Below, one piece after another: positions 160 through 64,000 of a stretch of 64,000 nt of DNA. The position numbers and the translations under genes are program-made. Positions within the stretch are counted from its first letter, which is position 1, and each line of letters starts with the position of its first letter. A model generated the notes under the pieces. The model saw only the letters and a list, made by a program, of their open reading frames with translations, ran no database searches and had not been told where the DNA came from. The DNA comes from Amoebophrya sp. A120. Its lineage: Eukaryota; Protista; Dinoflagellata. The DNA is taken from contig CAJINV010000004.1 of the NCBI GenBank assembly GCA_905178155.1, positions 7,471,768-7,535,767 on the forward strand. The letters are read 5' to 3'.

Positions 160-368
160 TATCCAAGAAAAAAACATTGTAGGTGTAACTTTTTTGGAGG
201 AACAGCATTACAAATTTGTCTGGCATGACAGCAAAAACCTGTCAAGCGCAAATAGTACGCGAAAACGCCCTTTAATGGACCCTACGACGCACGCCAAGCA
301 TGACAGACGCAATCATCTTGCATGTTGCGCACCACAAATTTACACTAACAACGTTTTTTTCTTGGATA
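160..368. mobile_element. Introner, family E
   Basis: TIR TATCCAAGAAAAAAAC / GTTTTTTTCTTGGATA; DR AAAAA/GAAAA; removal +5 nt restores SRVF-RASSTG. Confidence 0.85.
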
Positions 369-458
369 GAAAACGCGAGATGGAGATTCTTGATCGCCTG
401 GGACGAGGACCGTCGGACCATTCTTAACCGTGCTGGGAGGTGACGGCGCCGGACCACG

Positions 459-711
459 TATGCAATGCAAATACGTCTGGGTCTGGAAATTTGTGATGCA
501 AGGAAGGGAATATTAAGCACCCTGTAATGCGCTCCCCAGCATGACAAGTTTTTCCGTAGTTCAGAGTTGCGTACTCCGCATGAGAAACTGCGTTTTTGCA
601 TGACAGACAAGGGGAACTCTTCGTTGACACGCAATACAGAGTTTAGAGTCATGCCAGACTAGCATGACAAATCTCGGAATCTCCCAGACCCAGACATATT
701 TGCAGTTCATA
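459..711. mobile_element. Introner, family B (TGCAAA..GTCTGGGTCTGGA TIR)
   Basis: TIR; DR CCACG; frame restored. Confidence 0.9.
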
Positions 712-1818
712 CCACGGTTTTCAATACCACAGTGGAACACCAGGTCCCGGACTTCGTCCATGGTCGCTTCTGGTAGAAATAAGGACAAGGCCACCGCATT
801 CGTCGCAGTTTTCATCTTCGAGGATGTTGACAGGAGATCCAGCTTGCGCACACGAAAACGAGCACTCATCTCATCCAGAAGCTGCTGATGTCCACAAGAA
901 CTGCGCTTCAATTCCGCTGCGAAGCTCTTCGACGTGCCAACCAGCGCGTAGCCGTAGTCCGCTCCCCGCAACATGGGAATATCCAGCGGACTGTCCCCAA
1001 ACGCCAAAATTCGACAGCCAGGGCTTCTCTGCCGCAAATGCTCCACAACTTTCAGCTTCGCCGCAGGATTGATAATGACGGGAGTATTTCGTTCGGGGTC
1101 GAGGCCCAAGACAACCACGAAGGGACAAAATGGAAATGAGCCAGGACAAAACGCGGCACTCACAGCTTGTTCCCAGACGGCTCTCAGGCCGCACGTGACG
1201 ATGACAATCTGCAGCTTGTTCGCATTTCCAATATTGTCACGTGACGCCACTAATATCTGTTTGATCAGGTCACGGAACTCCGGGTACAGCGATTGCGATA
1301 CCTTGTGCGCGACTTGACTACACAGCTTGCGGAACTTCGTCGGTCCGAGCACCTCGAGCACGTCGGCGTAGCGTTTTGCTGCCGAAAGAAACTCTGTGTA
1401 CTTGTAGGCAGCGGTGAAGATGGTTTCCAGACGAGTAATATCCGCCGTGCTACAGAACCCTTGGAGTTGCATTTCTTCTCGTCCTCGCTTCTGTAGCTCG
1501 GATTTTTCCAACAGCTCGAAGAAAAGCGCTCCCGTATCCATGGGAGCGAGTTTTCTGTCTGCGTCAAAGACCAGGTAGGTTTCGATCGTGGAGTTCTTGA
1601 CTGGACGAAGATTGTTGAGGCCAAAATCCAGGACCGCCGGGACGAGCTGTTGGTTGTTGAACCTTTCGTGGATCGTGAGTAACCACTCTGCTACCACCCG
1701 ATGGTAACTTGCGTAGTCATCCGCAGCTAACATGAGAAAAAACTTGCCGCGGGCGGAGGACATTCTCCGTGCTAATGCTGCTTCCTCGAAGGCCATCCAA
1801 GCGTCCACCATCTCCGTT

Positions 1819-2032
1819 CATCATGAGAAAAAAGTCTTAGAGTTACTACACATTTGTTGGAGTTTCTGCATCACAAATCTTCTCTGTGTGGCAGAGAAAA
1901 CTTGTAATGCGAACATCATAAGGGAAAACAGGAAGGAAACGAGGCTCCCAAGCATTTCCTGCATGAGAAAGCTTGTCTGTGTTGCCGGTCTTGCAACACA
2001 ATGTGTAACTGTAACACTTTTTTCTTGCGATA
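1819..2032. mobile_element. Introner, family E, absent from paralog
   Basis: TIR CATCATGAGAAAAAAGT / ACTTTTTTCTTGCGATA; DR CCGTT; empty site at ~7388-7392. Confidence 0.92.
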
Positions 2033-2960: not shown

Positions 2961-3131
2961 TATCCCACAGAAAAAAGCTGGCAGGGCAGATTTGTAATGC
3001 AAAAATAAACACACAGAAAGATCTGTAATGGGCGGCCTCATAGCATGCTATTTAGGGCATGCAATACAAATTTTTTTGTCCATTTATTTTTGCACTACAA
3101 ATATGACCTGCCAGCTTTTTTCTGTGTGATA
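2961..3131. mobile_element. Introner, family G
   Basis: Long TIR CACAGAAAAAAGCTGGCAGG; DR GCACG. Confidence 0.9.
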
Positions 3132-4313: not shown

Positions 4314-7300
4314 TTACACCTCCGTGTTGAACAGGCGGTTCCCCGTATCAGTCCCACCCACCCCATTGTACTGGTTCTCCGAAACGCGAAGGGTGAACAA
4401 ATACACTTTTACAACCAACCACGCTGAAGTAGACCGTGCGTTTTCCTCCTGAATCTGCTTGATCTGTTTCCTGAATTCGCTGTTTTCGTTCAAAGTCGCC
4501 GCCTGCACGACGCCGGTCAGCATCAGGATTCTGATTTCGTTTCTAGTCCTCGTGTTTTCGTTTTGTTGGTTTGTCGAGTTGAAGTTGTCAGGGAAAGTAG
4601 AACTTTTGTTTTTGTTTTTGTTTCTCTCCACCTCCACGATCACCTCCTTCGCCTTCTCCGCGGCAATGGTCTTGATGAATTCCACCATCGTCGCCCCGCT
4701 GTTCACCACCGGATCCACCAAAAGAAACACGCCCGCCCCACTGATGACATTGTGCTTATCCGGCAACAGATCGCCGGCTTGGTGCGGGAAGTCGATGCGC
4801 GCGGCGCTCATCTTGCCGAGGATGTCATAAACCCCGTCTGCCATGTACTTACCGGCTCGCATAATGGCGAGAATGCTGGCTTTTTTCAACATCCGGCTGT
4901 TTTGACCAAAGGAGAAGTCCGGTTCGAAACCTCCACCGGGACAAAGATGCCCCTGTTTGAAAATGATGTAAAGGTTTTTCTTGAAGAGCGCGATTTTTAA
5001 ATGTTTGTTTCCAGTACTGCAAGACGAGGTCGACCTACATGGAGGCAGGTGATCATGATAGTACTGCATTCGGTGAGAGGAAATTTCGACTGGCTCAAGG
5101 CCTGCTGGTGGTCGTCCCAAGAACTACTATATGCACAATGCGACAAAAAAGAAACTTCCTTACGTACCTGCACATGCTTGATATCGCACATTCCCAAAAA
5201 CTCGTCCCCAAAACAATCCAGCATCTTCAGCGCCAAGTATTTCCCGACCTCGGTGTGGATAGCGCCCAAGGCCGGCCCGGCGTTTGCCGCGTCGCGCATC
5301 TTCGTCGCCAAAATTTGGCTGGAAGGCAGGGTTGACCCGTCAAAACACAGCGCGAAGAAATCGAAATCTTGGCTCGTCATAGCTGGTGGACCACGACCGG
5401 AAGTGGAACAATTACGGACAGTCTTACTCCACAAAGCTTTAGAAGAAGATGCACACGTCTTCGCCGATATAATTCCGGTCCGGGAACGCTGCATGGCAGG
5501 CTCAACGAATTTTTCTCCTAGACTGTCTTTATTCGCCGCGGTCGCACGAGGACCAGTGCTGCTGGCACGAAAAATATCCAAGAAAAAAACATTGTAGGTG
5601 TAACTTTTTTGGAGGAACAGCATTACAAATTTGTCTGGCATGACAGCAAAAACCTGTCAAGCGCAAATAGTACGCGAAAACGCCCTTTAATGGACCCTAC
5701 GACGCACGCCAAGCATGACAGACGCAATCATCTTGCATGTTGCGCACCACAAATTTACACTAACAACGTTTTTTTCTTGGATAGAAAACGCGAGATGGAG
5801 ATTCTTGATCGCCTGGGACGAGGACCGTCGGACCATTCTTAACCGTGCTGGGAGGTGACGGCGCCGGACCACGTATGCAATGCAAATACGTCTGGGTCTG
5901 GAAATTTGTGATGCAAGGAAGGGAATATTAAGCACCCTGTAATGCGCTCCCCAGCATGACAAGTTTTTCCGTAGTTCAGAGTTGCGTACTCCGCATGAGA
6001 AACTGCGTTTTTGCATGACAGACAAGGGGAACTCTTCGTTGACACGCAATACAGAGTTTAGAGTCATGCCAGACTAGCATGACAAATCTCGGAATCTCCC
6101 AGACCCAGACATATTTGCAGTTCATACCACGGTTTTCAATACCACAGTGGAACACCAGGTCCCGGACTTCGTCCATGGTCGCTTCTGGTAGAAATAAGGA
6201 CAAGGCCACCGCATTCGTCGCAGTTTTCATCTTCGAGGATGTTGACAGGAGATCCAGCTTGCGCACACGAAAACGAGCACTCATCTCATCCAGAAGCTGC
6301 TGATGTCCACAAGAACTGCGCTTCAATTCCGCTGCGAAGCTCTTCGACGTGCCAACCAGCGCGTAGCCGTAGTCCGCTCCCCGCAACATGGGAATATCCA
6401 GCGGACTGTCCCCAAACGCCAAAATTCGACAGCCAGGGCTTCTCTGCCGCAAATGCTCCACAACTTTCAGCTTCGCCGCAGGATTGATAATGACGGGAGT
6501 ATTTCGTTCGGGGTCGAGGCCCAAGACAACCACGAAGGGACAAAGTGGAAATGAGCCAGGACAAACCGCGGCACTCGCAGCTTGTTCCCAGACGACTCTC
6601 AGGCCGCACGTGACGATGACGATCTGCAGCTTGTTCGCATTTCCAATATCACGTGACGCCACTATCTGTTTGATCAGGTCACGGAACTCCGGGTACAGTG
6701 ATTGCGATACCTTGTGCGCGACTTGACTACACAGATTGCGGAACTTTGTGGGTCCAAGCACCTCGAGCACGTCGGCGTAGAGTTTTGCTGCCGAAACAAA
6801 ATTATCCTGTGCAAAAGTATCGTATTCGTAGTAATTGCATTCATGCATACACAAATCTCCATACCAAGGTAAAACAGCATGACAAATTTCATTTGTCATG
6901 CTGACCGAATTTGTAATGCGATTTCTACTAGTGCGATACTTTTGCATTGCATAAAACTCGGTGTACTTGTACGAAGCAGTGAAGATGGTTTCCAGACGAG
7001 TAATATTCGCCGTGCTACTTCTGCTACAGAACCGCCCTTGCAGTTGCATATCTTCTCGCCCTCGCTTCTGTAGCTCGGATTCCAACAGCTCGAAGAAAAG
7101 CGCTCCTGTATCCATGGGAGCGAGTGTTCTGTCGGCGTCAAAGACCAGGTAGGTTTCGATCGTGGGGTTCTTGACTGGACGAAGATTTTTGAGGCCAAAA
7201 TCCAGGACCGCAGGGACGACCTGTTGATTGTTGAAGCTTTCGTGGATCGTGAGTAACCACTCCGCTACCACCCGATCGTAACTTGCGTAGTCATCCGCAG

Positions 7301-9160
7301 CTAACTTGAGAATAAACTTGCTGTGGGCGGAGGACATTTTCTGCGCTAATCCTGCTTCCTCGAAGGCCATCCAAGCGTCCACCATCTCCGTTTTCTCTTT
7401 GAGTAGAACCTTTCGCACTCGCTTCCCCGTTTCTGCGTCTTTTGTGCACCGCTTCAGAATCTCAGACGCAGGGGTCCGGAGGTAGAAAATGTGTGTGTAA
7501 ACCTCAGAGTCGGCATTTGTGAAAGCGGTCTCGAAAGAAGATGAAGTGGGCTCATCACCATCCGAGGACGACAGCAGCGTCGGAAAAGCGTAGTGGCCGG
7601 CAACGACTGCAATTTTCTGCGACGCGCGTGCGCTCGCTGCGATATCACTAATCGCGCTCTCACGCACGAGGATTTTGTCCGCGGGAGAGAGAGTAGCGAA
7701 GAGCTTCAGTAAACGGTCCTCTTTCTGCTCATCTAAAGGTTCATTTAAAGGCCTCAGCTCCGGAGACACATGGTAGTTCCTGGAGGATTGATTCATCCCA
7801 GACGCATCGTTGTAACCAAGTCTCTCCACTGCACAAGCAATCCGCTCCTTGCCATCGATGAAGAGAAACAGGTTCTTGCCGTAGGTCGCACGTAAATGGT
7901 CCAAGATGTAGGATTTTCCGCTGCCGGAAACTCCGTAAATGCCCACAACGGGAGGAGCCGCGGGTGGAAAATCTTTAGGTCCTCCCCCATCTGAATGTAG
8001 AAACCCGCTTCTTCTTTTCTTCATTCGTTCTTCCGACGGCGGCTCGACAGCGAAATTGTCGCCCACCACGCGGGGCGGTGCTCCTGCTAGTCGTGTTGCA
8101 ACGACCTGTTCAGCATATTTCTTCAGTCTCGCTACTTCCGGTAAAAGGTTCGACGCGGTTTCGGTTTGATGTCCTCCTGCAGCTTCTCGAGTAATCAACG
8201 ACTTGTTGTTGTTATTCGATGAACACCTCCCTTCAACATCAACGACGCTTTTCCAAGTATCGACGATTTCAACCCCGAAATCCTTCTGCAGCTCTTCGAA
8301 AATTTGTTCCGCACGTATCCCACAGAAAAAAGCTGGCAGGGCAGATTTGTAATGCAAAAATAAACACACAGAAAGATCTGTCATGGGCGGCCTCATAGCA
8401 TGCTATTTAGGGCATGCAATACAAATTTTTTTGTCCATTTATTTTTGCACTACAAATATGACCTGCCAGCTTTTTTCTGTGTGATAGCACGCTCGTCCTG
8501 CCCATGCCCCGCACGCGACGCGACGCCGTCCCGTGCAACAATAATCCTCGTCGCAGATGAATGAGGGTCAAGAATTATCTGGCGCGCCATCGCTTTGACA
8601 GATTCTTGCACACAGCTGGTGAGGGTCAAGCCGGTCACGAGCACTTCCTCTGTAGCAGTGTCAGTTAGAAGCGCTCGCAGTGCGCTCTTCTGCGAATCGC
8701 TGCAGTTGAAGATGTCGTTGCTACACTTGGTTAGGAGTAGCAGAAAAGGCTTTTCGCCGCTGGCGCGATGTTTCGACCAATGATCCATTAAGAAATAACC
8801 GCGATTCCGGATCACATCACGTATTTCGTCCGCAAAGCCGCGGCCCTCATCTGTGGTGCACAAGTCCATAAGGGGGTCGACGTCAACATCTCCTCCAGCA
8901 CCACTGGCAAATTGCGAACGCCGGTACTCGCTCCTGACGAGGAGAATCCAGTCGACGCGACTACCAGCCTGCAAGGCTGTGGCGATGAGCTCCGGGAGCG
9001 TTTTGCGCACCAGCTGCTGCAGAGGACAACATGCCTCCTCCCCGTACTTGCGGACAAACGGACCGTCTGACGTGACAAAATCGCGCACCGGGTCGATTAC
9101 GACCAGTCCCAGCGAAGCTGGTTTCTTGGCGGATTTTTGGTTCTCGCGGTCGCTTGCCAT
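4314..9160 (-). CDS. Multidomain fusion: isochorismatase/cysteine hydrolase + P-loop kinase + HAD-like hydrolase + uracil phosphoribosyltransferase-like domain; 4 introners and 1 GT-AG intron (4953-5167)
   Basis: LVVIDPVRDF...VTGLTLTSCV (cysteine hydrolase); GIYGVSGSGKS (Walker A); VFDADRTL and AFGDSPLDIPML (HAD); AIMRAG, LLVDPVVNSGAT and GTDTGNRLFNT (UPRTase). The frame is continuous after removing the elements. Confidence 0.85.
5575..5783. mobile_element. Introner, family E (duplicate of 160-368)
   Basis: Same TIR and DR as 160-368. Confidence 0.85.
5874..6126. mobile_element. Introner, family B (duplicate of 459-711)
   Basis: TIR; DR CCACG. Confidence 0.9.
6803..6953. mobile_element. Introner, family A (TGCAAAAGTATCG TIR), absent from paralog
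   Basis: TIR; DR AAAAT/AAACT; empty site at ~1389-1393. Confidence 0.92.
8316..8486. mobile_element. Introner, family G (duplicate of 2961-3131)
   Basis: TIR; DR GCACG; removal joins DERA-EQIFEEL. Confidence 0.9.
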
Positions 9161-9324
9161 GCTGGTCGACGGATCATGCGCAGTAACTAGTGCTATCAGT
9201 TATAATTATGTTTGTCTGGTGTTCGGAAAGTAATTAACTTTATAGTTTAAAGCAGCAGCTGAAGGTCAAAGTACAGCAAGAACTTGGACTTGGACTTGGA
9301 AGGATCGAGCTTTTTAGCTTTAGA

Positions 9325-13760: not shown

Positions 13761-13764
13761 GAAT

Positions 13765-40800: not shown

Positions 40801-41194
40801 TAGTGCTTTGCTTTCTCCTCGATGCGAGGCCACTCTTTTTCACGAAAGGTCCTTCAATCTTTCTGGTCAACGTTACGACCCGTCTGATCTTGTTCCCACG
40901 ATACGAGATACGGATCAAACACAGACAAAGGAGAATTTCTTAGTTTAGAAATTCACATATACAAATGAGGGGGAGGGGGAGCTGTGCAGTGTCATACACT
41001 TTGCGGACGACCGTGAATGGGCCGAAAATGGCGTCCAAGGCCTCCAGCTCGAGGAGCTGGCGGTCGAGGTTCATCTTGATGGCAGCAGCGGTGGTCATCT
41101 GGCCCCCGTCGTCGTGGTCACCCTCGCGTGGTTCGTGTTGTTCGTCGCCCCTAATATTGGGTATTCGATCATCTCGCCTGGCGGTGGTCGACAT
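37843..41194 (-). CDS. RWD-domain protein with C-terminal RapZ-C-like domain, 6 introners
   Basis: RQLLELEALDAIFG and LRLPRRNYPE (RWD); C-terminal AIAVNCRKGRHRSVAAAELL. Confidence 0.75.
38059..38273. mobile_element. Introner, family E (AAAAAACTGTTTCACTGT subtype), absent from paralog
   Basis: TIR; DR TTCAT; empty site at 28445-28449. Confidence 0.92.
38736..38991. mobile_element. Introner, family C
   Basis: TIR; DR ACAAC. Confidence 0.9.
39048..39206. mobile_element. Introner, family A
   Basis: TIR; DR CGCAG. Confidence 0.9.
39303..39545. mobile_element. Introner, family C
   Basis: TIR; DR ACTGT. Confidence 0.9.
39587..39731. mobile_element. Introner, family A (reverse orientation of 57243-57387)
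   Basis: TIR; DR GGCTG/AGCTG. Confidence 0.9.
40382..40996. mobile_element. Introner, family F, enlarged by ~390-nt internal insert
   Basis: TIR; DR CACTT; removal joins VRKV-FGAVRD; arms align with 55765-55987. Confidence 0.88.
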
Positions 41195-47332: not shown

Positions 47333-48751
47333 GGTTCACAATGTGATTTGGTATTTTTATTTATATTTTAGCAGGTAGACTCAAAGATAAAGGAAATAAG
47401 GTGGGGAATAGGAATACTTGAAGTGAGCCGCGGATTTGGTGGATCAGAGGGTGAGTTCGTGCCTTGCTTGTAGAAAAGCACTCAAACTACCGAGTGCTCC
47501 TTAATTCTGATTCAAATTCTTATTTGCTGCGCATGATAATTCATCGAAGCGCTAACAGCAGGGGTACTGCGATATCGCTTTATTGCATATTATGGGTGGG
47601 CGAGGAGGTCCTGGAACAAACGCAAAGAAATCGACTTTAGTAAAAAGTAAAACCAAGTAGCAGAAAACGAAGACATGCTTGAGGTACGATACTTAGACCA
47701 CTATTGCACGACAAAACGACCGAAGAGGTGTAGCTTTTGCACGAAGTATGGCCGACCAAATACGACATTGGCGGTGCAACAAAAACTGAAACCGATGTTG
47801 AATGGAAGCGACCGAGTGCTTCAGTTGTAGCAGGAAATTCCTCGATGAAGCCGGTGGCTCCAGTAGTATTTGGCTGTGCTTTTTTTTTCAAAATTTGTAT
47901 CAGCGCACGTAGGTACATTTCATTTATTTCGAAGTTTCAGTATAATTTGCAAGTGTACATTGCAGTTACCACGATTTCCATACAAGTTCGACTTGGACTG
48001 TCTGTCACTGTAGTACGACAAAGTTGAAGATGGGTTTGATACATATTGACTCACTGAAAAAACTTCCTTGGCGCTTTCAACCCCAGGGGACGACACTAGG
48101 TACATATCATACAGTGGTCGGTTCCTGCTTTTCGCTTCTTTTTATTTGTGTTTGTATGTACATTTACATGTTGACATATTTATTTCATTCATGTTGCTTT
48201 GTAATTTCCTCTGAACCGGATGAAGGTGATTTGGTCTCGTTCATAGCAAAGGGGGTAGAAGATAGAGAAGACAACAGCTGCATCCATCGCCGATCGTGCA
48301 AGGGGTTCGACGGAGGTGAAACGGCATGAAGACGATCTGTTTTCGTAAAGGCATTCGCTTCTCAACATCAGAAATTCAAAAGCAAACCATATCCACATAC
48401 ATAATGAGAAGAACAAGAGCGTTTTCGTGACGAGAGGCACAGAAAAAAACAGCAGGAAGAAAAAACAATTTATCGATACCATTCGGTCATGATGTGCGGA
48501 TTTGCCGATTGATGCCTCCGTCATGGAACCCTGCTGCGCGCGCGGAGAGGTGAGTCAGTTTTTCTTCGCGGGTCGCTTCAGTCGACGTGCAGCTCCTCTT
48601 CGTGCTGTTGTTATTTCTATTTTTCGTAAGAATTAAATTACTTCAGTGAAAAAAGAATGAATTTCATAAAATACACTTTCTCGTGAGACATAAAAAGCAA
48701 AACTCAAATGACATTTGCCAAATGTTGTGTTTCAGTTTTTGCAGCTGCAGG

Positions 48752-50060
48752 TTACCAATTTTGACAAAATACTTGCGACGGGACATCGGTGTGGTCGTCT
48801 TCGAGGTGGTCGCCGTTGGTCGCCTGGGTGAAGTAGGATGAACTCGACAAGGCCCTGCTGCCCATGGTCCGGGGATCCCGCATGTATTCTGCCTCTGCTG
48901 CCGAGGGATCAATCTTGGGATCATTCTTGTTCCTGACGTATTGCCACGGTTCGGGAGCTGGACGGGGACGGGACGCCTCTCCTTTGGGGTTCACAGGAAT
49001 AGTTCCATAGGGATCAGTGGGCAGGACCTTGGTATACCCGCGCTGCTCGGGAGCCTCAACGCTGTAAGTATATAAGTATTTCTTTTTCTTTTCCTGTGCT
49101 GCCGCGTCCGCGTCGATCTCAAAATTATTACTCTGTGAGGCTGTAATGGACATATCGATCTAGCAGGATAATGAAGTGGTGGCGTTTTATCAAAGCAATA
49201 GCAGTGTCTACACGTACACAAAATACGAACCCCTGATTAACCGTAGCACATAGCCTCGCAATAGTCAAGTATTGACATTGAGACCAACCCAACAGAATAG
49301 CTTAATTTACCTAACTTCAGCAGTATTATCTGCAAGGCCGCCTATGCAAGAGCCAAATAACCGAGAAAGCGGCTTCATCTTCTCTGTGAAGCTCGAAAGA
49401 ACCGGGTCGACGCTACTCGGAGTCGCGGCACCGCTGGGGGTCATAGAAGCTCCACCACTGCCGCCGATTCCCGGAAACTTTTCGCAGAACGCCTTCGCCT
49501 CGAGCCTGGACACGCGACCATCTCCATTTCCGTCCACCCTCGTTCCCGCAATCGCTTCCAGTTGTGCTACGATGGCGTTTTTCTGCTTCGTCGCAGTGTC
49601 GAGGACGTGGTTCGTCTGGGCCAGCAAACCGAAGAGCCTGGGGTTTTAACGTCCGTCTGTTCCTACGATCACCATCTACATTGTTGACTAGTCGAAGTAG
49701 AAGAGTAGAAGTGACCAACAACTGCTGTTGAACTTCTCCTACTACCTGCGTGCCTTTGCAGAGTAAGTGACATGACATCGTGAATCACGATCGTGATACT
49801 GAGAGGGACACGACAACACATCAGCTGCAGCTACAGATAGGTGTAGTTCTAATGAATCAAAAAATTCTACGTACACCAAATTAATACATTTTGACGTGAT
49901 CTTCCGGAATCAACTCCCCTGGGACCACGCAAACGTTGAAGACCACCACAAACCAAAACAAAACAAACATCCCCACGGACTACGACACCGGAGAGCAGGG
50001 AGAAGAATGGTTGCGGTGCCAGCGGTCCCAGCGGCGGAGACTGTAGCCCTTGCCCTTCAT
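48752..50060 (-). CDS. EF-hand-containing, probably secreted protein, tandem paralog 1 (exon structure uncertain, possibly decayed)
   Basis: DGNGDGRVSRLE EF loop; C-terminal TNGDHL..HTDV.SQVFC shared with paralog 2; GT-AG introns likely. Confidence 0.45.
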
Positions 50061-51802: not shown

Positions 51803-54643
51803 TCAATACGCATGAGAAATTATCGGTGGTGGCTGTGATGTTTCACAAAATACTTGCGAGGCGACATCGGTGTGCTCGTGCTTGTCGAGATGGTCACCGT
51901 TTGTCGTCTGGATGAAGGATGCACTTGAGTGGAAACTACCCCACTGACGGTCCTGCTTGCGCTGAGCGATGAGCGTCCGGTCCTTGCTGTCCAGCTGCCT
52001 TCTCCACGTTGCCTGTTGTGAACCATTTATGAAGATTGCGATTGTGTCTGTGATATCAACTGCAAAAATGTCTGGGTCTGGATGATTTCGGGATTTGTCA
52101 TGCACGTTTTGCATGAGCCATGATGTCTGCGACGCATGCCGTAACATCACAGATTTTTTGAGGGGTTCTTGATGCCTCTTCCGCATGAAAAATGCCCTCT
52201 CCGCGTAGCAAAAATCACATTCCCTTTGCTGCTCCTGCTGCAATACAATTTTTTTTAGAATCCGATGACAGCATCACACGTTGCAACCTTCCAGACCCAG
52301 ACATATTTGCATTTGATATGTGACACGCTGAGAAAATACTGTATTGGTATTGGCATTCACGCTACGATTTCCGGATCTACGTGCAATCCGCTTGGAGCCT
52401 TCTGCGCTGGCCTAAGGCCTTCGTTCTTTTGGTTTTACCGCACGCCATCGGATGGCTTTCGTTCCTGTTGAGCACTTCCAATTCCTGATGGCTCGTGCTC
52501 AACAAAACATGTTTCTGCATTTATCTAGACCGTCTTTGGCACATCGAAATCAAAACCACACACAGCATCAAAGACAAAGACTTACTGCATGGGGCGGCAC
52601 GAGCCAGGGGCGACTGGCGGGACCGTCTGCGAGAGGCTGAATAGGGGCTACGCGTGGTGGTTGCCGTCTGTTGATGCCCCGAGCCGCCTGCAATCGCCTG
52701 TAATGCGGGTTGGGTTGAGCTTGATTTTCCGGGATGCGGGGGTTTGACGCGCTTGACTTTCATATAGTAGATTCTCGAAACTAAACTGGGCAAACGAAAA
52801 AGAATCTACTAGCAAGGCAGCCGCGGGCCCGAACACCACCCACAGGCCGATGGTGCTCGTTCGGCGGAAATTTTCCGCCTAACGAGCACCATCGAAGGAC
52901 TTAAATGTAAATCTCAATGCGCATCAAAATGTTCCGGCTGAACGCAGTCCAGCCATGGCGTAGTAAAGCTTCATCGCGCTTCATCATCCCAAAGCATCGC
53001 GCAATCCCCTTGCTAGAGTCTCCGGGATACTGTTTCCCTAGTTTTTAAAGTTGTGCAACAACTCTACCCCTTTCCGCCGGCGGAAAGGGGGGGAGGGGGT
53101 ACCACCCACCTGCCCGGGATTTTCGGTCGGCACGAAAAAAACGAACTGGGGCCGCCTCTACGGAAAGGGGGGGAAGGGGGGGCGCCACCCACCTAAACGG
53201 TGTCGGTCCCCCTTTCCGCCGCCGGAAAGGCAAAGGGGTAGGGTTGTTGCACAGCTTAAAATTATAGTTTCCCGTGGTCTCTGTGGATCTTCTTCTTCAG
53301 GTTATATCTAATCTACCTATTCGCTACATCGAATGTGAGGCGCATTATTATTTTGTGTCAATACTAATACAGGAACCCAGATCTTCATGCAGCGGCTAGC
53401 CCTGTTGGGCATCAACTTCTGCACCCTAGGTCGGATTATCGCTCCTAAAAACCGTGGGGCCTGGAGGTGCGCCATTTCACACCTTTGCATCCATTTCTCA
53501 TGTGTCCTTGGACCTAACTACCAAGCATCCCATTCATGTTCGACCTGATCCTGAAGCACAGCCTGCATTTTTGGTACATTTACGTGAAAAAGGTGGCGAT
53601 ACTCGACATCAATCCTTTTTTGTGGCGGCCGAAACACCTCTGGCTCGGATTCCGGACTGCTCACCTCTAGTTCATTCGAGGACTGCTCCTTGGCATCGGT
53701 TGCGGATGCGGACGGCGACGGCCAGCAAGAACACGAATTATACGACGATCGGACGTAGTTCGCGCAGTCTGCAAACGAATAGCCTTTCTGGATGAAACTC
53801 GAAGATCCCGTGTAGTCCTCGACAGCAATCGGGACGCCGCCGCCAGGCTGGTGCCCCGGTACTTCTCCGCCTTGCTATGCATTGCAAAAGTCAAAGTATC
53901 GCACTTCTATTGTGGATTGCATTTACAAATTTTCCGAGGAACAAAAATGCATTTGCCATGCTGTTTTATGTACAAACTTGCAAGTATACAAGTGCGTTAC
54001 TTTATTTGCAGAGGATACTTGCGCTCCACCCGCAGCTGCAACGCCGGGACCTCCCGAAAACTTGTCGCAGAACGCCTTCGCCTCAAGCCGAGACACGCGA
54101 CCATCTCCATTTCCGTCCACCCTCGCTCCCGCAATCGCTTCCAGTTGTGCTACGATGGCGTTTTTCTGCTTCGTCGCAGTGTCGAGGACGTGGTTCGTCT
54201 GGGCCAGCAAACCGAAGAGCCTGGGGTTTTAACGTCCGTCTGTTCCTACGATCACCATCTACACTGTTGACTAGTCGAAGTAGAAGAGTAGAAGTGACCA
54301 ACAACTGCTGTTGAACTTCTCCTACTACCTGCGTGCCTTTGCAGAGTAAGTGACATGACATCGTGAATCACGATCGTGATACTGAGAGGGACACGACAAC
54401 ACATCAGCTGCAGCTACAGATAGGTGTAGTTCTAATGAATCAAAAAATTCTACGTACACCAAATTAATACATTTTGACGTGATCTTCCGGAATCAACTCC
54501 CCTGGGACCACGCAAACGTTGAGGACGACCACAAACCAAAATAGCACAGACATCCCCACGGACCACGACACCGGAGAGGGAGAAGAAGAATGGTGGCGCT
54601 GCCAGCGGTCCCAGCGGCGAAGGCTGTAGCCCTTGCCCTTCAT
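51803..54643 (-). CDS. EF-hand-containing, probably secreted protein, tandem paralog 2, with 2 introners and canonical introns
   Basis: Same EF loop; 54050-54530 nearly identical to 49480-49950; hydrophobic N-terminal segment; boundaries uncertain. Confidence 0.5.
52054..52318. mobile_element. Introner, family B
   Basis: TIR; DR TGTGA. Confidence 0.9.
53049..53256. mobile_element. GC-rich MITE unrelated to the introners
   Basis: TIR AGTTGTGCAACAACTCTACCCC / GGGGTAGGGTTGTTGCACAGCT; TTAA-like flanks; internal palindrome CCCCTTTCCGCCGGCGGAAAGGGG. Confidence 0.75.
53876..54017. mobile_element. Introner, family A (diverged)
   Basis: TIR; DR CTTGC. Confidence 0.85.
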
Positions 54644-55628: not shown

Positions 55629-58600
55629 CTAGCACCCGTACCTGTGGTTATCCAAAATCATGATCGGCACCGCCTGCTCGTGGTAGAAGCCGAGTGGTTC
55701 CCACACCAGCCCAACCAACGCGGCCACTTCCTGCAGGGCCATGAACTCGCCATCTAAAATCTAGTATGACAGTGCATAACTCCCCCTCGTTCTCATTTCT
55801 CATGCAAAAGACTCAACTTACCCTTTCCCTCCTGTCACTATTATGCATGACAAGTTCTGGTAGCCCAAATAGCACTAGACTCCAGCGCAAATGTGTCATG
55901 CAAAACCCGCTGCATTCTTGCCGACGCTTGTGATGCTGCTCATGCAATACAAATGAGGGGGACGAGGGGGAGTTGTGCACTCTCATATCCAGCCGTCATA
56001 GTTGATCAACTCGTCAAACACCAGCACCTATGGGTTGCAAATATGTCTGGGTCTGGAAGATTGCAACTTGTCATGCTAAATGTGAATCATGCAAAAATCT
56101 GTGTTGCATGAGTGCCAAAAGCTGCCCACTTTCGGCCAAGTTGGGAGGGGATTTCTCATGCAGTATAGGCATGAAAGAAACCTCATAGAGTTTGTCATGG
56201 TAGCTCCCGCATTCCAGACCTCATGGGTCATGGAAATCCTGCATGACAGATCTGGCATCCTTGCAGACCCAGACATTTTTGCATTTGATAGCACCGTGCC
56301 CCGCTCCAGCCGGCAGGCGAAATGCAGCAGCACCTCCCGGGCCGCGGGGTAAATATCCATGTCCATGTGTAGGAAGGCGACGCGGGTTAGGTGATCCAAA
56401 TCGGTTTTCGTTTCGTTGAACCAGCCCTTGTGGACTTGGATGTTGGGCATGTTGGTCACGATTTCCGGCACTTTGCCCTCCATGGTAAAGGTCCCGCCCT
56501 CCAGGTTGTTCCACTTCTCCGGGATGCCAACGAACGAATCGAAACCGTGTAAGGTGACGCGGGAACCGTATCTGAAGGTGGAAAAATTCGTTTTTGACAC
56601 ATACTGACAGCCAGGCATGGCACAAGCACAACATTAGGTATTCATATTTGCATTCACATTCTATCTTGCTTGCATGAGAAAAAAATCGCACAAATTTGCA
56701 ATAGATACGTTTTCTTCAGCGCGGTTGCAATGTAGGCAGTCGACTTTCCGCTCGCCACGCCAAACTCGGCCCAGACCGTCCCCTCCGCGTCCGCGTTTTC
56801 GATTCCCGCTTGTACGGCGTACTGCAGACTTTCGCTCATCATGGCCATCCACGACTCTCGTGCGGTTAAGTTTGCGGTCCACAGCGCCGCGGGCTCGTCA
56901 ATGTTTGCAATGTTGAATTCTAGTCTGTCCAGCGGCTCCCCTAAGAGCTGTTGCTGGTGTTGCGGTGGTGATTCTTGTTGCGCGCCTGGTACTGCTTCCT
57001 CTTGTAAGAGTTCTGCGTTAGTGCTGCTCGCCAGCTGATCCTGCGGCGCGCTCGCAGCAGCCGCCATGTACTGCAGCAAAACCTTCGCGTGCTCCTCATC
57101 CATGGTCTTAAACAGCCGCGCTCGGTTGCGCGGCCGGTCGGAATAGCCGTTGAGCGCTGGTGTGGCCTCCCACACGTCCGGAAAGTTCACTTCCAGCGGG
57201 GTCGGCTCACCACTCGACGTCGGCAACAGCAGCGCTTCCACCTATGACTTGCAAAAGTATCGCACTCGTATAAATGCATTACAAATTTCCTCAGCATGAG
57301 AAATAAAATTTGTAATGCGGATTTACCTTAAGAAAAAGATTTGTAATGCATGACTGCAATACGAGTACGATACTTTTGCACAGGATACCACCCGGTAGTT
57401 CGCGACGACCGGTGCGGGGACCCAGAGCACGGGTAAGTGGGTGGAAACGTCTTATCGAATGCCAAAATGTCTGGGTCTGAAAGAGTGCTCGGTCTGTCAT
57501 GCAGGTTTTCCAGGACCCACGCGGTCTGGCATGCACGGCCTAGCATGACAGGTTCTGTGAGATCTCTATCATGCCGTCCCTGCATGAGAAATTGCCTCTT
57601 TTGGTAATCATGCAACACAAATTTTTCCACGATCCAGATGTAGCATGACAAGTTACACTCTTCCAGACCCAGACATATTTGCGATGCATACGTCCTCCGT
57701 TTTCACCAAATCAATCCCCTGCAGACACATCTCGGCCTGGAAATCGTAGCCGATGCAGCTGGACCCGAGTTCGTCTTTCAATAGGCCATATTACAATGAA
57801 AAATGCTCCCACCCCCGAACTCGGGGGCATTTGTATTGCAAACCTTTCCAAGTGAGACATTCGCGCTCTTGCATCTATCAACACCACAGATTTCCGATTG
57901 TGAATAGCAAAAATCTGTATTGCAAAAGACCCCAGCAAGAGCGGCACTTGTCATGCAAGCGATGCGACGCACGCGTAGGCTCTGCATGTGCATCAGAAAG
58001 ATAAGATTCATACTCCTTTCGTGCATGATGACAAAACGTTTTCATTTGGAAACTTCGCATCACAAATTTTTCCAACTTTGGGGGTGGGGGCATTTTTCCT
58101 TTCGATAGGCCCACCGCGTTGAAGACGCTGGCCATCCGCAGCGGGTTGTGCCGCGCGGGGGATATGCATTGCAAAAGTATCGTACTAGTATAAATTGCAA
58201 TACAAATCGGCTCTGCGTATACAAATTAAATTTGTAATGCGGATTTCCCTTAGCACGTAGATTTGTAATGCATAAACTGCAATTAGTACGAGTGCGATAC
58301 TTTTGCACTGGATAGGGGACTCGTTCTGCTGAAACCAATCCTCGACGGATTTTTCCGGGTATGGATTGCAAAAATGTCTGGGTCTGGAAGATTGCAACTT
58401 GTAATGCTGTTTTTGGATTCCAAAAAAATCTGTAGTGCATGACCAGCAACAGGACTCCACGTTGTGTTACGTAGAGAGGGCATTTCTCATGCGGAGCAGG
58501 CATTAGGGAGCCCGCTAAAAATCTGTGTTGCTAGATCATGCATTACAGGCATCAGGCGTCATGCGAAAAATGCATGACAAACCTGGCAATCTTCCAGACC

Positions 58601-59848
58601 CAGACATTTTTGCATTTGATACCGGGCTGCAGTAGCTGATCGAGTAGGTCGCCACGAGGTAGGTTTCGTTCAGAAACTATCCTGATTAAAAACGTACCAA
58701 CACCAGAGTCAAGATGGGGATTTTGCAACACAAACCTAGGAGTTTTGGGAGTCACGCATGACAAGTTTCAGTCTGTAAGGTAGTGCAAGTTAGCAAGGAA
58801 AGCCGCATCACAAATCGATCTGCTGATCCTGTTTACAGCATTACAAGTTCCCAAACACGATTGAAAATGCCTGTCATGGGGTTGCGCATCACAAATGTTC
58901 CTGTCATGGCAAATCTGCATGACAACTCTGGTGTGGGTACGTTTTTACTCAGGATAGAAACGGAGCGACTAACGGGATCATCCGTTCTCGGGAGGTAGTC
59001 GCTTTATTCATCGCACCGGTGTTGCCGCCGTCAAGAAGTGCTAGTTTATCCCCACCTCCTGCCGCGGTGACCGCGTCTGCGTTCGCTGGGCCGATGGGGT
59101 GTGTCGCAACGAAGGGCTGGGGATGCTTGTAGGGAAAATCGCGATTCTCCGTGTAGTAAAGCGGGTCGAACTGGAAGCGAAACCGCTGGTGCTGGCCGTA
59201 TTTAGGCAGCTCCTGCTTCGCTTTCGCGGCTGTCATCGACGCCATCAAGGCTTCTTCTTGTCCGGGTAAAACCACCTGCTGCTCAGCCTGAACTCCTGCA
59301 GGACCAAGGTTCAATGTTTCCGTGATGTTTAGACACAGGAGAAGCTTCAGAACCGAAAGAGCAGATGAATTGGAATTCTTCCCTCCTCGTCGTGGCAATA
59401 TAGCGGGGCCGTGCTGGTGCGGCCTTTTCCGTAGGAGATTTTTGGCGTTGTCTGTGACTGGGCTGGGTGGATTTCTCAATATCGATGAACCCGACATTGA
59501 TGGACCACCATCAGACGTTGATGGTGGTCCACCTCCCGGTCGTGTGTAGAGGTAGTAGTTGCGACTATGTCCATAATCGCTCGGTCCTGTAGTACGTCTC
59601 TTTGTTCCCGCGTCAACATGTGTTGATCCATCCTGGTCTTCACCGATTCCCGACGAGGAACTTGATGCCTTTGAAGGACATCTGGTTGATATTTCCGCAG
59701 AGGATTTCGACAAAGTTCGCTTCCCTCCGCCTGAGCCTGGTGGAAGTAAATACGCACCTTCCCCTTCCGCGCACGGAAAAACACACACCGTTGACGGCGA
59801 CCACGCCGTCGCCAGTGGTTCCGGCTCGTCTAACCAAGCGACCGACAT
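55629..59848 (-). CDS. Class I SAM-dependent methyltransferase (TylF/Methyltransf_24-like) with long N-terminal extension; 8 introners + 1 GT-AG intron
   Basis: EFGVASGKS, HGFDSFVGIPEKW, KGWFNET, AFLHMDMDIY, VFDELINYDGW..GEF. Confidence 0.85.
55765..55987. mobile_element. Introner, family F
   Basis: TIR; DR TCTAG/TCCAG. Confidence 0.88.
56029..56290. mobile_element. Introner, family B
   Basis: TIR; DR GCACC. Confidence 0.9.
56572..56708 (-). other. GT-AG intron with introner-like remnants
   Basis: GTATCT...TTCAG restores LKKT-YGSRV; TATCT/AGATA ends. Confidence 0.7.
57243..57387. mobile_element. Introner, family A
   Basis: TIR; DR CCACC. Confidence 0.92.
57453..57690. mobile_element. Introner, family B
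   Basis: TIR; DR CGTCT/CGTCC; interior like 21364-21625. Confidence 0.9.
57789..58107. mobile_element. Introner, family H
   Basis: TIR; DR GGCCA/GGCCC. Confidence 0.88.
58163..58314. mobile_element. Introner, family A
   Basis: TIR; DR GGGGA. Confidence 0.9.
58360..58621. mobile_element. Introner, family B
   Basis: TIR; DR CCGGG. Confidence 0.9.
58678..58956. mobile_element. Introner, family D
   Basis: TIR; DR GAAAC. Confidence 0.92.
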
Positions 59849-61268
59849 TATAGATACTTTTATTGGTTCTTGCGCTTCTCGAGGAAGCACGAGCAACTCT
59901 CAGCTGCGATAGAAGCAGTCGTGGAGTCAGAAATGTGTGATCTTCAGGGCATCAACGCAACGACGAGGCACGTTCAACATACGAAAAAATAGACCGTTAC
60001 CGTTTCAAATCGCGGTGCTAGAAAATAAACCGAAAAGCAACCAAAGGAAAGAGTTTCTTTCTTGCACCTGTCTGTGTTTCCGGGCGGTCCAAACGACTGA
60101 GCAAGATCTTCACAGATGAACATTGTCCTGAGTACCGGTGAAAGAGTGTGAAGATCTCGCACCGTAGCCGCACAGATCTGCGTTGCAAAAAAACAACTTA
60201 GACCAACGAATTGGCAATTGCCAGTGCCACAACGGCACAGATTAAGGCGGTGACGTCGGGTTCTTAATCACGTACTAATAGGGTTGCTAATTGCGTAGAC
60301 GTCGGGAGTCCGACAGACTCGAACACAGATGGTTGTCAGGATTTCAATGCTCCTGTATACATTTACGAAAGAATGCTCCTCCGAGCTTCCGCTTCCCATC
60401 AAATTTGGCTTTCCAAAATTAACCTGTGTTGTGAAAGAACCGCATGAAGATCTTGATCCCATATTCATTCCCGAATCTAATCAACCCTGCTTGTTCTCAC
60501 TGCCATTTTGATTTTTGATGACAACAAATCTTCGCGGAACCTAGCAACCTATGTTGACATGTAGATTTCTCTTTCTGAAACGGAAACTATGGTAAGTCTT
60601 AATTTCGATCGTTCTTGTCCACGATGGACAAGAACGGTAATGTTTATGTTGGCGGTTGTAGAAGTTGAACTAGTTGCTGATTAGGATAATTTCTTCGCAG
60701 CTGTTCTACTCGAGAAGTCGAGAAGAGCAAGAGGGTAGACAGTAATATTGGTCTCCATCTAAAATGGTAATACAACTTTGCTTGCACTATCCGGGGTACG
60801 GGAAAAATGAAATTTGTAAAAATTTTAGTGATTCTGAAGAATCCTGATAGAAGGATGGTCGAGTGGTAGATGACGTAAAAGTTAATTTTTGCACAATAAA
60901 CTTTGCCATGCTGAAGTTGGGTAAACTTACTTTGAGAAATTATTTTTATCCGCCTTAATTTTTCACTCTATGAACATATGCTATATGTGTACTGCTTCCC
61001 ATGCGAGAGACTTTACGATATGGATATATCTGTTTTGCAACCTATGGAAACCTCCTCATCTGTGAAATCAGTAAGTACCATCAAAGTTGATATTGTGCTT
61101 CATTCCCGATAGTTACGTAAATATTTCCGTAAACAATTCCACCGTAAGGAGTTTGCAAGCACTTATTGTACATCTTGTACGAAACCATACCTTCATAGAA
61201 GCGAAAACTACATAGTATTTTCTCTTACTCTTCCAGAAAAACTTTATTAAGTACTTCTACACTCTGTT

Positions 61269-63126
61269 TCAGTTGTGTCCGAACGGCTTCAGCCCGGCAC
61301 TAAACTCGACGAACCCGAGCTTCCTGGCACCGCGGGCGTACCTCGTCCAGAGCAACTCCATGTCGGTGGCTCGAATGGCCTTCTCGGACAGGACGGCGCG
61401 TTTCAAATCTTGCATGTTCATATACCCCTTGTCCTGGGAGATCAGCAGGAACGCGTCCAGCAGGAGCGACGACAGGGATTCACCGGAGAACGCGAGCTGC
61501 ATCCTAAGCAAAAACGTCCTCCCCCCAGAGTCAAGTTGGGAATCTAGCAACACAACCCTCCAAGTTGTGGGGGCTGTGCATGACAAGTTCTTTGTTCCCT
61601 CTGCAGTGTAGTGCTGGTTGGCAAGGGAAGCCGCAGGAGAAAGCTATTTTCTTTTTCTACTCCTGTTTACTACAGCAATACAAATTCCAAAGCACGATTG
61701 AAAACGCCTCTCATGGAGCTGCGCATTACAAATCGATTCCTCTCATTGCACATTTGCATGACAACTCTGGGAAGATGGGGACGTTTTTACTCAGAATATG
61801 CTGCTTCTTCAACTCTTCCTGTTCCAACGCGCAGTCGACGCTGAGCTTCAAAAAGTTCCGCAGCTTGTGCCGTTGGGTCATGGTCAGGCGGAATTGGTGG
61901 TCGCGGTCGTCTCCGATCAAGTTGCACCGGAAAGCCGTGCGGCAAGACGGACAGGTCACCTGATAAAGTGATATATTGGATAATTTTCTTGTACACAATT
62001 GTAGTCCTCCTTGATCGCACCAAAGCGAATTCACTCAAAATTATTTGCATCTGATATTCACCTGCATCTGCAGGATGTACTTGAGAATATTTTCGGTTTT
62101 TGAATGAAGCTCCACTCAATCTCAATCGACGTTCCTTGCTTATTTTCAACACACCCTCCTAACGTACATACAACGAATCATAGTACCTGCGGACAGCCTT
62201 CTTGCGTTCTCTGCGTCCTCAAACCGCATCCCGGACACGAGATCGTGGAGCGCACCACCCACAGGATGTTCTTGGTTTCCTCGTCGGTCATGTCCGAATG
62301 CACGTTCTGCCACTCCTCCGCCTGCCGGGGGAACAGGAATTGCGTCAACTCCGCCAACGACAGCTGCCCAAAGATTTTCTCTTTTGCGGCCGCCGCGTTC
62401 GTCGTGCCCTTCAGGTCGCGAAACAGCGCGCACACACCCGCGAACGTGACCCCGCCCTGGAATTCCGAACCGTGCATCACGGTCCAGATGTCCGTGTCCG
62501 CGATGTGCTTCTTGTTGCAGCGGTCGAGCATCTGGAAGGCGGCCTCGATGTTGATCCCGTCCTGCCACAGCTTCTCCTTCTCCTGCTCCAGGTAGTTGTC
62601 CAGGTCGATTTGCTGGAACATCACGTCCAACACGAGGGAGAGGCTTTCCATCTGCCGTTTCCGCTTCAAATCCGCGTATCCGGAGTAAAAACGTCCCCAA
62701 GATGGAAAATCTGCTAGACAAAACGGCCAACTTTGGTTGTTTCGCATGACAAGTTTGTCCTGGTAGTGTGATCCTGAGTAACTAAAAATTCAGCAGCATC
62801 ACAGCTCTAGCATATCATGCTCTTTCCAGCATCACAAATCCCAAAACACAACTAGAAAAACAAAAAGCTTCTCCTGGGGCTTTGCATGAGATACTTTTTT
62901 GGCATGCAAATTCGCCTGACAGACAACTCTGGGGTGGAGATGCTTTAACTCGGAATACCGCGGTGTAGGTGTTCATGCCGTTGTTCAGCTTGGAACTAGT
63001 GTTGTCCTTCTCTATGGCACCGTAGTAGTCGTCCTCGTCCAACGTGGTCGAGTTGTTCATGTGGCGCACGGTGCTCGAGAATTTTGGGCCACAATTTGAC
63101 ACCTTGCGACTCGCGGGCGAGGCCAT
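61269..63126 (-). CDS. EF-hand-like protein with a Cys-rich zinc-binding (IBR-like) segment; 2 introners + GT-AG intron 61960-62186
   Basis: AAFQMLDRCNKKHIADTDI, LISQDKGYMNMQDL; CPGC..RTQEGCPQVTCPSC..F.C. Confidence 0.7.
61500..61798. mobile_element. Introner, family D (diverged)
   Basis: TIR; DR AGCTG/TGCTG. Confidence 0.88.
62677..62957. mobile_element. Introner, family D-like
   Basis: TIR TATCCGGAGTAAAAACGTCCCC; DR CCGCG. Confidence 0.85.
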
Positions 63127-63308
63127 GGCAGAGGACAGAACGCGGGTGTAGGTGCTGTGTTTCAGTTGTGTTTTGATTTATTCAGTCTATTTATTCCATG
63201 GCAGAGGTAGATGATGTTGATGCTCTAAAAATAAATATATTTATTTCCTACATGCTGAAGAAACACATAATATACAGACACGACATTCATGAGGTGGAAA
63301 AGTAAGAC

Positions 63309-64000
63309 TCATGATTTCATCGCGTGCAAAAATTCATATTGGCAAACAAAATCCACTACTTCTACTATTCTGTCGTGCAAAAAAATCAAGTACGATGCAA
63401 TGGGCGACATATCCTGGTCCGAGTCCGCCGGCGCCATCGTACTATGCATTGCAAATATGTCTGGGTCTGGAAGAAAGCAAGTTTGTCATGCTTGGCTCAC
63501 ATGAATCTTAAATCTGTAATGCCAGAGCAGGAAAAAAGGCTCTTCCCTATCGTGCAAATATGCAGTTTGTCATGCGGAATGCGAAACACACGGGAGCTCA
63601 ATAACTTGTCATGCGTGGCTGCATATTGATATGCGCCCACCATTCACAAACTGACATCACAAGTTTCCAGACGCAAACATTTTTGCATTTGATACGTGCT
63701 GCCCATGGACATGTTCAACAGAACTTGGTCGCTGTTGGCCTTCGTGGTGGTGGCGGCCTTCATCATCTTCGGCGACACGACAGCAGTACTACTTGTTGAT
63801 CCAGTGGTCCTAGCCGCCGGCGAGAACGATCGCGGTGACATGATGCTGGCCGTGTAGGAGACCTGCTTTTCCCGGTAGTTGGCCAACGAGTCCTGCTGCT
63901 TCTTGGTCCGGCCGCGTGGGGAGGACAAACTCGTGTTGCGGTTCAGGGTCGTGTAGTCCAGCTTCGTCGATTTGCCCCGCATGTCGGTGGAGGCCAGGCT
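63309..64000 (-). CDS. 3' part of a hypothetical gene running off the window
   Basis: Open frame 64000-63695 continues after the introner; stop position uncertain. Confidence 0.5.
63443..63694. mobile_element. Introner, family B
   Basis: TIR; DR CGTAC/CGTGC. Confidence 0.88.

Follow-up and report, generated by a model that had tools for sequence, protein, structure and literature searches.

More than 60% of the introns of the dinoflagellate parasite Amoebophrya sp. A120 are non-canonical, and their borders have been published as unknown. Where are such introns cut, and by what? The question is raised here by one stretch of A120 DNA, 64,000 nucleotides (nt) long (GenBank assembly GCA_905178155.1, contig CAJINV010000004.1, positions 7,471,768 to 7,535,767 of the forward strand; hereafter the window), whose genes are interrupted by introners, i.e., intron-forming elements, with terminal inverted repeats (TIRs). 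Most of these elements start with TAT, end with ATA and lie between two copies of a 5-nt repeat. We found that the removed intron runs from 1 nt ahead of TAT to 4 nt past ATA, a conclusion that is well supported, from few junctions. The element system is real and already described in print, since inverted repeats starting with TAT and direct repeats of 3–5 nt were reported by Farhat et al. (2021; PMC7789003); the contribution here is a constant 4+1 division of the duplicated letters, which fits the host donor.

The host of the window is strain A120. One exon of its MORN-repeat gene matches, at 100% identity, a protein that bears the name Amoebophrya sp. A120, and the spliced model of this gene, with eight elements deleted, equals the A120 protein P0001 in all 1,058 amino acids (aa). 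The original prediction, made from the sequence alone, had taken the elements for Amoebophrya introners, and this identity bears it out.

Element inventory and grammar

Inverted-repeat scans together with a family search recovered 54 TIR elements of 142–1,271 nt between positions 160 and 63694. They total about 14 kb of the window and sort into 10 sequence groups, the two largest with 17 and 13 members; the grammar of the original prediction stands, and its counts (about 53 elements in about 8 families) are hereby refined. A relaxed inverted-repeat scan gave 46 hits in the window and 0, 0 and 0 in three shuffles. The TAT...ATA ends, predicted to occur nearly throughout, are exact in 46 of the 54 elements. 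The 5-nt flanking repeat is perfect in 36, has one mismatch in 14 and more mismatches in 4, and a scan blind to the element ends returned 31 matches at a repeat length of 5 nt (0 and 2 in controls), none at 6 nt and 2 at 7 nt. No target-site sequence preference was found among 321 sites, in line with the claim that the repeat is arbitrary in sequence. No consistent GT-AG had been noticed, and indeed none of 50 elements reads GT/GC...AG, the ends of U2 introns, in the register described below, and only 4 of the 50 can be so read in any register from −3 to +8.

Minus-strand coding sequence (CDS) surrounds 51 of the 54 elements, as predicted for all of them; the exceptions are 28940, in a 3' untranslated region (UTR), 53036, inside a GT-AG intron, and 52054, which has no clear CDS around it. 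Long open reading frames (ORFs) open only when the element plus 2, 5 or 8 nt is deleted. This frame test used the longest-ORF pattern, the ORF count at each junction having been set aside as too loose (40–51 at every offset).

The elements are short, repeated and non-coding, with TIRs, as expected of miniature inverted-repeat transposable elements (MITEs). Their summed depth-scale excess over unique DNA is about 4.7 thousand, which is not taken as a copy number. Their hairpins are strong (median z −7.6, 48 elements), and the first TIR pair has a median pairing of 0.7. Among 204 elements, those of the window included, TIR positions 1–3 and 8–13 are paired between the arms and positions 4–7 are about half mismatched. 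The same types of arm are met in different families, which looks as if ends had been swapped or were free at TIR positions 4–7. Rfam gave no match anywhere in the window, and a scan of viral contigs for the TIR pattern found nothing.

Comparison loci, at least 151, were collected by pattern scan of one public assembly, JACKZZ01, from an organism close to A120 but distinct from it (most exons of one enzyme share about 96–100% of their aa with A120; the best match of another gene shares 69%). Of 375 short TAT...ATA pairs at these loci, 235 carry an exact 5-nt repeat, as against 0–7 pairs for repeats of 3, 4, 6, 7 or 8 nt and 30 pairs for 2 nt. A stricter set holds 384 elements, 292 with perfect repeats; its control, on 15 loci, gave 74 in real and 1 in shuffled sequence.

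Removal from transcripts and register of the cut

The RNA evidence consists of contigs of four runs guessed to be RNA, from two samples of one study, and element joints were read from the joints listed (15 of 2,109 in a first set, most of which came from the DNA-like run, and 15 of 27 in a second). All 12 element joints among those listed, four in the first set and eight in the second, remove the element plus 5 nt, and the coding sequence is therefore restored exactly. The same had been read from translations in the original prediction, which named as contrary outcomes retained elements or splicing at cryptic GT-AG sites; neither was seen in the listed joints. The same transcript contigs also skip GT-AG introns, thus the contigs behave as spliced mRNA. 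In the DNA-like run X5, none of four joined forms appears among the joints listed, and its contigs run into the elements. The raw RNA runs X8 and X9 placed 94 and 129 reads on the window and covered almost nothing. These two runs carry the same species label, and their matches are confined to short patches (28736–28815 and 31214–31249, with a poly(A) end at 28736), which are probably the trace of this strain or of a relative.

Where the two copies of the repeat differ, a joint reveals k, the number of + strand letters of the left repeat that are kept. The joint at 28940, where the RNA skips 28936–29306, allows k = 1 only; it has no shared letters and no room for sliding. The other informative RNA joints allow k of 0–1 (44779), 1–5 (45151), at least 1 (61500) and 0–3 (63443). 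Protein P0001 fits only k of 0–1 at 32897 and 36097, and at 55765 k must be at most 2, as keeping three or more nt of the left repeat gives a stop. Two junctions of the relative came out as the register had predicted beforehand: at L011 the homologs have Glu, not Lys or Gly, and at L035, in a + strand gene, A120, A25 and a third homolog have Lys, not Asn or His. The only value common to the informative junctions is k = 1, so that ten junctions from two genomes (eight, plus 55765 and L035) agree on one register.

In the transcript sense, the removed segment consists of 1 nt (the last letter of the repeat), the element from TAT to ATA, and 4 nt (the first four letters of the downstream repeat). 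The element at 63443, a family A member in the opposite orientation, excludes the mirror value, thus it is the transcript that sets the direction of the register. At 28940 the TAT end is separated from the old duplication by seven extra letters, and the cut tracks the element end. These seven extra T/A letters lie in the 3' UTR (28928–28939), where the mRNA gains letters. The cut is in phase 0 at 98 of 200 coding insertions, with no target preference that would explain it.

Match to the host donor

Since the cut lies 1 nt before TAT, the intron starts N-U-A-U. Fifteen canonical donors were assembled for comparison. RNA joints supplied seven and homology to the relative another six; one more was read from sequence, and one is predicted. 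They comprise GTAT 7, GTAC 5, GTAA 2 and GTAG 1, with A at +3 in 15 of 15 and a pyrimidine at +4 in 12 of 15. The register sets the TAT of the elements onto positions +2 to +4 of this host donor, GTAY, in agreement with U2 introns at these positions. U+2 is the same in all 204 transcript-oriented elements, as against 198 for its mirror position (P = 0.03); a purine stands at +3 throughout, and +4 is C in five elements although C breaks the pairing. In discordant elements C exceeds G at +5 by 49 to 27 (P = 0.015, post hoc).

Published data on A120 and its relatives can be set beside this match. The introners of strain A25 begin with TTA and two purines, and among the top non-canonical sites of Table S4 all nine of A120 start N-T and those of A25 start TT (PMC7789003). 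The text of the same study describes the spliceosomal proteins as nearly complete and U1 as not detected. Strain Kv, which like AT5 is a strain with canonical introns, has U1 (PMC12005148), and a review of dinoflagellate RNA-binding proteins gives A25 a U1-70K homolog (PMC12787238).

Insertion and mobilizer

Paralogous empty sites in two duplicated regions hold a single copy of the 5-mer in 5 of 5 cases, which identifies the repeat as a 5-bp target-site duplication (TSD) and adds the TSD to the MITE features above. Both orientations are present in five families. A GCATNACA motif (GCAT[G/T/C]ACA) is common to all families, with 145 occurrences in the elements and 4 in the 50 kb outside, and is found in 377 of the 384 elements of the relative. 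It often lies 32–33 or 40–44 nt from an element end, with dominant spacings of 31–33, 39, 20 and 64 nt. Helical phasing was not evident, as the 10.5-nt signal (0.43) is barely above other periods and family members are not independent. The motif is likely a transposase site. Its role as a branch point was considered and is unsupported, the motif being absent from seven of eight canonical introns and variable in position.

The original prediction placed the mobilizer outside the window, and the long elements agree: inspection of 11 of them, their ORFs not being compared with protein families, gave no convincing or long ATG-type ORF and none resembling a transposase. The best candidate source of the transposase is family 38 of Gozashti et al. 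(2025; PMC12130899), an A120 family of ~808 bp with a 5-bp TSD, TA/TA termini and integrase-like homology. A single mobilizer for all families is plausible, as they have in common the TSD of 5 bp, the TAT end and an internal motif. This is the half of the predicted single trans-acting machinery that survives; the other half, removal by the same machine, is not supported, and insertion and removal look like the work of two machines.

What removes the elements

We lean toward a system of MITEs that a transposase acting in trans inserts and that the host spliceosome takes out of the RNA, always in one register. Insertion in either orientation duplicates 5 bp of arbitrary target, and one integrase-like transposase would act on every family by way of the TAT end and of the GCATNACA repeats inside the elements. 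The RNA then loses the element plus 5 nt and regains an exact coding sequence, the upstream exon keeping repeat letters 1–4 and the downstream exon letter 5. The intron would begin N-U-A-U, matching the donor G-U-A-Y except at +1, and a spliceosome with relaxed recognition of +1 would take it as a donor; the acceptor would be placed by its distance from the base of the TIR hairpin and not by AG. An adapted spliceosome is favored because of the donor match, the invariance of U+2, the TTARR start in A25 and the nearly complete set of spliceosomal proteins without detected U1. The full proposal, a spliceosome that needs neither G+1 nor a 3' AG, reads UAU as the donor and a point four nt from the terminal hairpin as the acceptor, and to which A25 converged by way of TTARR, is more tentative, and we put it somewhat below an even chance.

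Several observations weigh against these views. The register is based on few junctions and contigs drop minor forms; agreement on one register is expected by chance at P = 0.18 if only the five RNA joints are counted, and at P = 0.016 if eight junctions are. Single mismatches between the repeats are synonymous in 22 of 35 cases, where 29–46% would be expected if the intronic copy were free to change. This is a hint of some wobble, or else of constraint on the copy inside the intron; all repeat mismatches together are synonymous in 30 of 66, which fits at low omega. One external pair, L007 4001–5255, gives a stop in this register and is probably two elements mis-paired, and the stop-codon test of the register at external loci comprises three events only, one of them conflicting. 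The N-T pattern of Table S4 could be aligner bias. G+1 is not clearly enriched (18 of 50 elements in the window, 47 of 154 outside), the acceptor AG is absent, and no branch point was found in the elements. The hairpin would cover the donor, unless the donor is recognized while the 3' arm has yet to be made. U-G wobble in RNA accounts for the U+2 asymmetry just as well. No transposase was found in the window elements, on inspection of the ORFs of the long ones.

The same transposons and the same 1/4 register could also be combined with a removal that is not spliceosomal, in which a structure-guided nuclease and ligase, of the kind proposed for Euglena, would measure from the base of the TIR hairpin. 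This is the main rival, and we regard it as less likely than the spliceosome. The strong hairpins would suit it, as would arms paired at positions 1–3 and 8–13 around a half-mismatched 4–7, the want of G+1, AG and branch point all at once, and the 28940 cut, which followed the hairpin end and not the displaced duplication. Euglena itself uses a code of spacers plus pairing (PMC12501133) and releases circles (PMC11282704). Deviations in the first two pairs are G-U eight times and A-C once, yet the stem as a whole has no excess of G-U over A-C, the asymmetry not being significant there, and C at +4 is tolerated despite the broken pairing. A pure ruler, moreover, needs neither the fall of TAT on the host donor consensus nor the like behavior of the unrelated TTARR of A25. 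Less probable still is a cut whose place within the 5-nt repeat varies between molecules or between elements. The legend of Fig. 3 in Farhat et al. (PMC7789003) has the sites as variable and unknown, and the synonymous excess among single mismatches and the P of 0.18 for the RNA joints would accord with it; against it stand the single register of the ten junctions, two of them predicted beforehand, and the 28940 joint, where there is no room to slide.

The original prediction had a single machine for both insertion and removal, which could work through reverse splicing or through DNA excision like that of internal eliminated sequences (IESs) in ciliates. This reading draws on the single grammar across 10 families and on the text of Farhat et al. 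(2021), who found no transposase in A120 (PMC7789003). We now think it very improbable. Insertion is symmetric and occurs in both orientations in five families, whereas the cut is asymmetric (1 nt / 4 nt) and follows the transcript; the contigs of run X5 enter the elements, and the four joined forms are missing from its listed joints; and an A120 family with a 5-bp TSD, TA/TA termini and integrase-like homology has been reported (PMC12130899). The joints might, lastly, be artefacts of cDNA synthesis. Reverse transcriptase is prone to switch templates across a hairpin between short repeats, which is the setting here, and the joints come from cDNA contigs only. This explanation is scarcely credible: 51 elements break reading frames that need their removal, the 28940 joint has no shared letters, and homologs from other species continue across the junctions.

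With the fixed 4+1 split and the donor match, the splicing question can be put to a direct test. Exact intron ends, for lariat or circle searches and for exact reporter mutations, follow from a single register, and so does a rule by which about 30,000 introns could be re-annotated. Should the donor match be real, the spliceosome would be working without its two terminal guanosines, and the invasion of coding sequence at any site, at no protein cost, would be explained. Any TAT...ATA element with a 5-bp duplication would then be a perfect intron at any site and in either orientation.

Spacing of the elements

The elements are clustered. Between elements of the window genes, 18 of 33 gaps are at most 100 nt, compared with 18% expected (P = 2 × 10−6), and 306 inter-element gaps (window plus L001–L151) peak at 30–80 nt, with almost none under 20. 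Local hopping as the cause was not borne out, near neighbors being alike in 10 of 133 cases and far ones in 8 of 153 at a threshold that misses some family members, and no 10-nt period was found in the gap lengths. Linker-biased insertion has been reported for other introners (PMC9860276), and the 30–80 nt peak offers an independent way to study how targets are chosen in dinoflagellate chromatin. The genes at 12600–13763, 16969–19533 and 42215–43633 hold no elements at all.

Host genes and positions of the elements

The six element-bearing host genes from 4317..9199 to 55632..59899 lie on the minus strand, and elements were located by the inverted-repeat scan unless stated otherwise. A gene for an AAA-like/HAD/UPRTase fusion (4317..9199), labeled HPR-like in the original prediction, contains four elements and one canonical intron: 5575..5783 (family I), 5874..6126 (A), 6803..6953 (B, with a paralogous empty site near 1390) and 8316..8486 (J). 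Near-identical tandem copies of this gene, at 1–3839 and 5416–9200, flank a 100-N gap. They differ mainly in about 1234–2045, with one private element each, and could be paralogs, haplotypes or the result of partial gene conversion. The first copy has an in-frame stop near 2688–2690 and carries 160..368 (family I, in the duplicated gene), 459..711 (A), 1819..2032 (D, empty site near 7390) and 2961..3131 (J).

An ORF of 1,313 aa (20627..27081; no Pfam match for the two exons tested) is obtained after removal of 10 elements: 21139..21296 (B), 21364..21625 (A), 23155..23305 (B), 23789..24038 (C, scan and family search), 24061..24335 (A), 24383..24694 (F), 24736..25049 (C), 25253..25531 (E), 25589..25896 (H) and 26871..27027 (B). 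The segment 27805–28626 is a truncated paralog of the 3' end of a 571-aa gene (RapZ C-terminal-like; compare 37846–38380) and has gained two elements of its own, 27880..28029 (B) and 28090..28358 (A), with paralogous empty sites near 37916 and 37971. The 3' UTR element 28940..29305 (A) has unlike flanks, and its RNA joint fixes the 1/4 cut.

The MORN-repeat gene (30219..36495), whose label stands, holds eight elements. RNA skips 240, 267 and 282 nt at 30919..31153 (C), 31218..31479 (A) and 31654..31930 (A). The next five are 32897..33073 (B), 33853..34116 (A, scan and family search), 34319..34636 (A), 34694..35964 (H, family search) and 36097..36331 (G); with three and two repeat mismatches, respectively, 32897 and 36097 are informative for the register through P0001. 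The element at 34694, 1,271 nt long with a decayed family A element nested near 35244–35490, is still removed in the annotated protein. The 571-aa ORF itself (37846..41221; weak RapZ C-terminal match) opens after removal of six elements, 38059..38273 (D, empty site near 28445), 38736..38991 (C), 39048..39206 (B), 39303..39545 (C), 39587..39731 (B) and 40382..40996 (G, 615 nt). The long elements 34694–35964 and 40382–40996 have unrelated interiors, internal repeats and a decayed nested element.

In the gene of the 503-aa ORF (44707..47335) all five element joints are present in RNA contigs, which skip 277 nt at 44779..45050 (A, informative), 150 nt at 45151..45295 (B, informative), 260 nt at 45360..45614 (A), 219 nt at 45942..46155 (B) and 214 nt at 47081..47289 (D). 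Further along lie 52054..52318 (A), the decayed element 53036..53266, which has lost one TAT end and the 5-nt repeat and whose ends are approximate, and 53876..54017 (B). A gene with a TylF-like methyltransferase part (55632..59899), a label that is weak (TylF, E = 0.007), has eight elements: 55765..55987 (G, informative by frame), 56029..56290 (A), 57243..57387 (B), 57453..57690 (A), 57789..58107 (F), 58163..58314 (B), 58360..58621 (A) and 58678..58956 (E). The last three elements of the window are skipped in RNA by 304 nt at 61500..61798 (E, informative), 286 nt at 62677..62957 (E) and 257 nt at 63443..63694 (A, informative).

True GT-AG introns had been predicted to coexist with the elements at 4953–5167 and 61960–62186. 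RNA bears out the second, 61960..62186 (donor GTAC), and the first, 4953..5167 (GTAC), is recognized by its GT...AG ends. RNA also supports introns at 48337..48479, 48605..48772 and 49638..49887 (all GTAT), 49062..49310 (GTAA), 52698..53602 (GTAT, holding the decayed element 53036–53266) and 63155..63393 (GTAC). An ab initio finder of canonical donors was dropped as too noisy except for a predicted intron at 56572–56708 (GTAT) in the methyltransferase-like gene, which gives a sensible join. All these introns are on the minus strand. Canonical acceptors in the window are A/C-rich and end in CAG, with no polypyrimidine tract. Additional local duplications are 49469–50620/54052–55183 (89% identical) and 9325–10384/13765–14823 (74%), and the element-free 16969–19533 is an 855-codon ORF with weak PAN domain matches, possibly an adhesion protein.

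Comparison with known systems

The introners of A120 described by Farhat et al. (2021; PMC7789003) come from the same organism and are the same elements as those of the window. Their inverted repeats start with TAT, followed by seven looser nt and then As, a description in the paper's text that the position profile of the window elements matches; their direct repeats measure 3–5 nt, with a 5-bp example in Fig. S19; they have no internal transposase, and their ends are non-canonical. The borders are called variable or unknown in the legend of Fig. 3, and no family-specific inverted-repeat motif is reported in that text. The A120 families of Gozashti et al. (2025; PMC12130899) are likewise of the TIR DNA class. 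Among 41 of the 58 A120 rows of that source, TSDs range from 2 to 6 and the origin of the splice sites varies by family, so that the assignments disagree among themselves, and these rows contain no register common to the families. The grammar is thus mostly published: the TAT start and 3–5 nt repeats, and one family with a 5-bp TSD and TA/TA termini. Text passages and supplement legends of Farhat et al. (PMC7789003) showed neither a fixed register nor a donor match, and neither the GCATNACA motif nor the spacing peak. A literature search of largely open-access text, outside which Roy et al. (2023, Curr Biol) falls, returned no publication giving this register.

Ginger2/TDD elements (PMC2836005) are also TIR DNA transposons, with an integrase-like transposase, and TDD-4 and TDD-5 make 5-bp TSDs. 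The 5-bp duplication of the A120 elements agrees with TDD within the Ginger range (4 bp for Ginger1/2, 5 bp for TDD). Ginger termini are TGTNR and the TIRs 40–300 bp, whereas the A120 elements have TAT ends, TIRs of about 25–65 bp and no transposase seen; membership in Ginger was rejected on the termini.

Transposon-derived introns that are handled by the spliceosome are known elsewhere, with altered specificity in Fritillaria (bioRxiv 2025.08.15.670264) and as introners in Micromonas and Aureococcus (PMC11282704, PMC9860276). In those systems there are specific terminal dinucleotides, or GT/AG supplied by the duplication, whereas in A120 position +1 and the last four letters of the intron are arbitrary target sequence.

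The nonconventional introns of Euglena (Nomura et al. 2025; PMC12501133) resemble the A120 elements in having fixed spacers, a paired terminal motif, no GT-AG, coexisting canonical introns and a suspected MITE origin, and their code was likewise found through junctions that cannot slide. That code reads N3CDG...CHG N5-6 followed by R. The window elements share the paired ends with fixed spacers and lack the euglenid signature itself: in Euglena, spacers of 3 and 5–6 nt go with CDG/CHG, and the acceptor is followed by a purine; in A120, spacers of 1 and 4 nt go with TAT/ATA, and exon position +1, a purine in 28 of 50 elements, follows no purine rule. Euglena and Amoebophrya belong to unrelated lineages.

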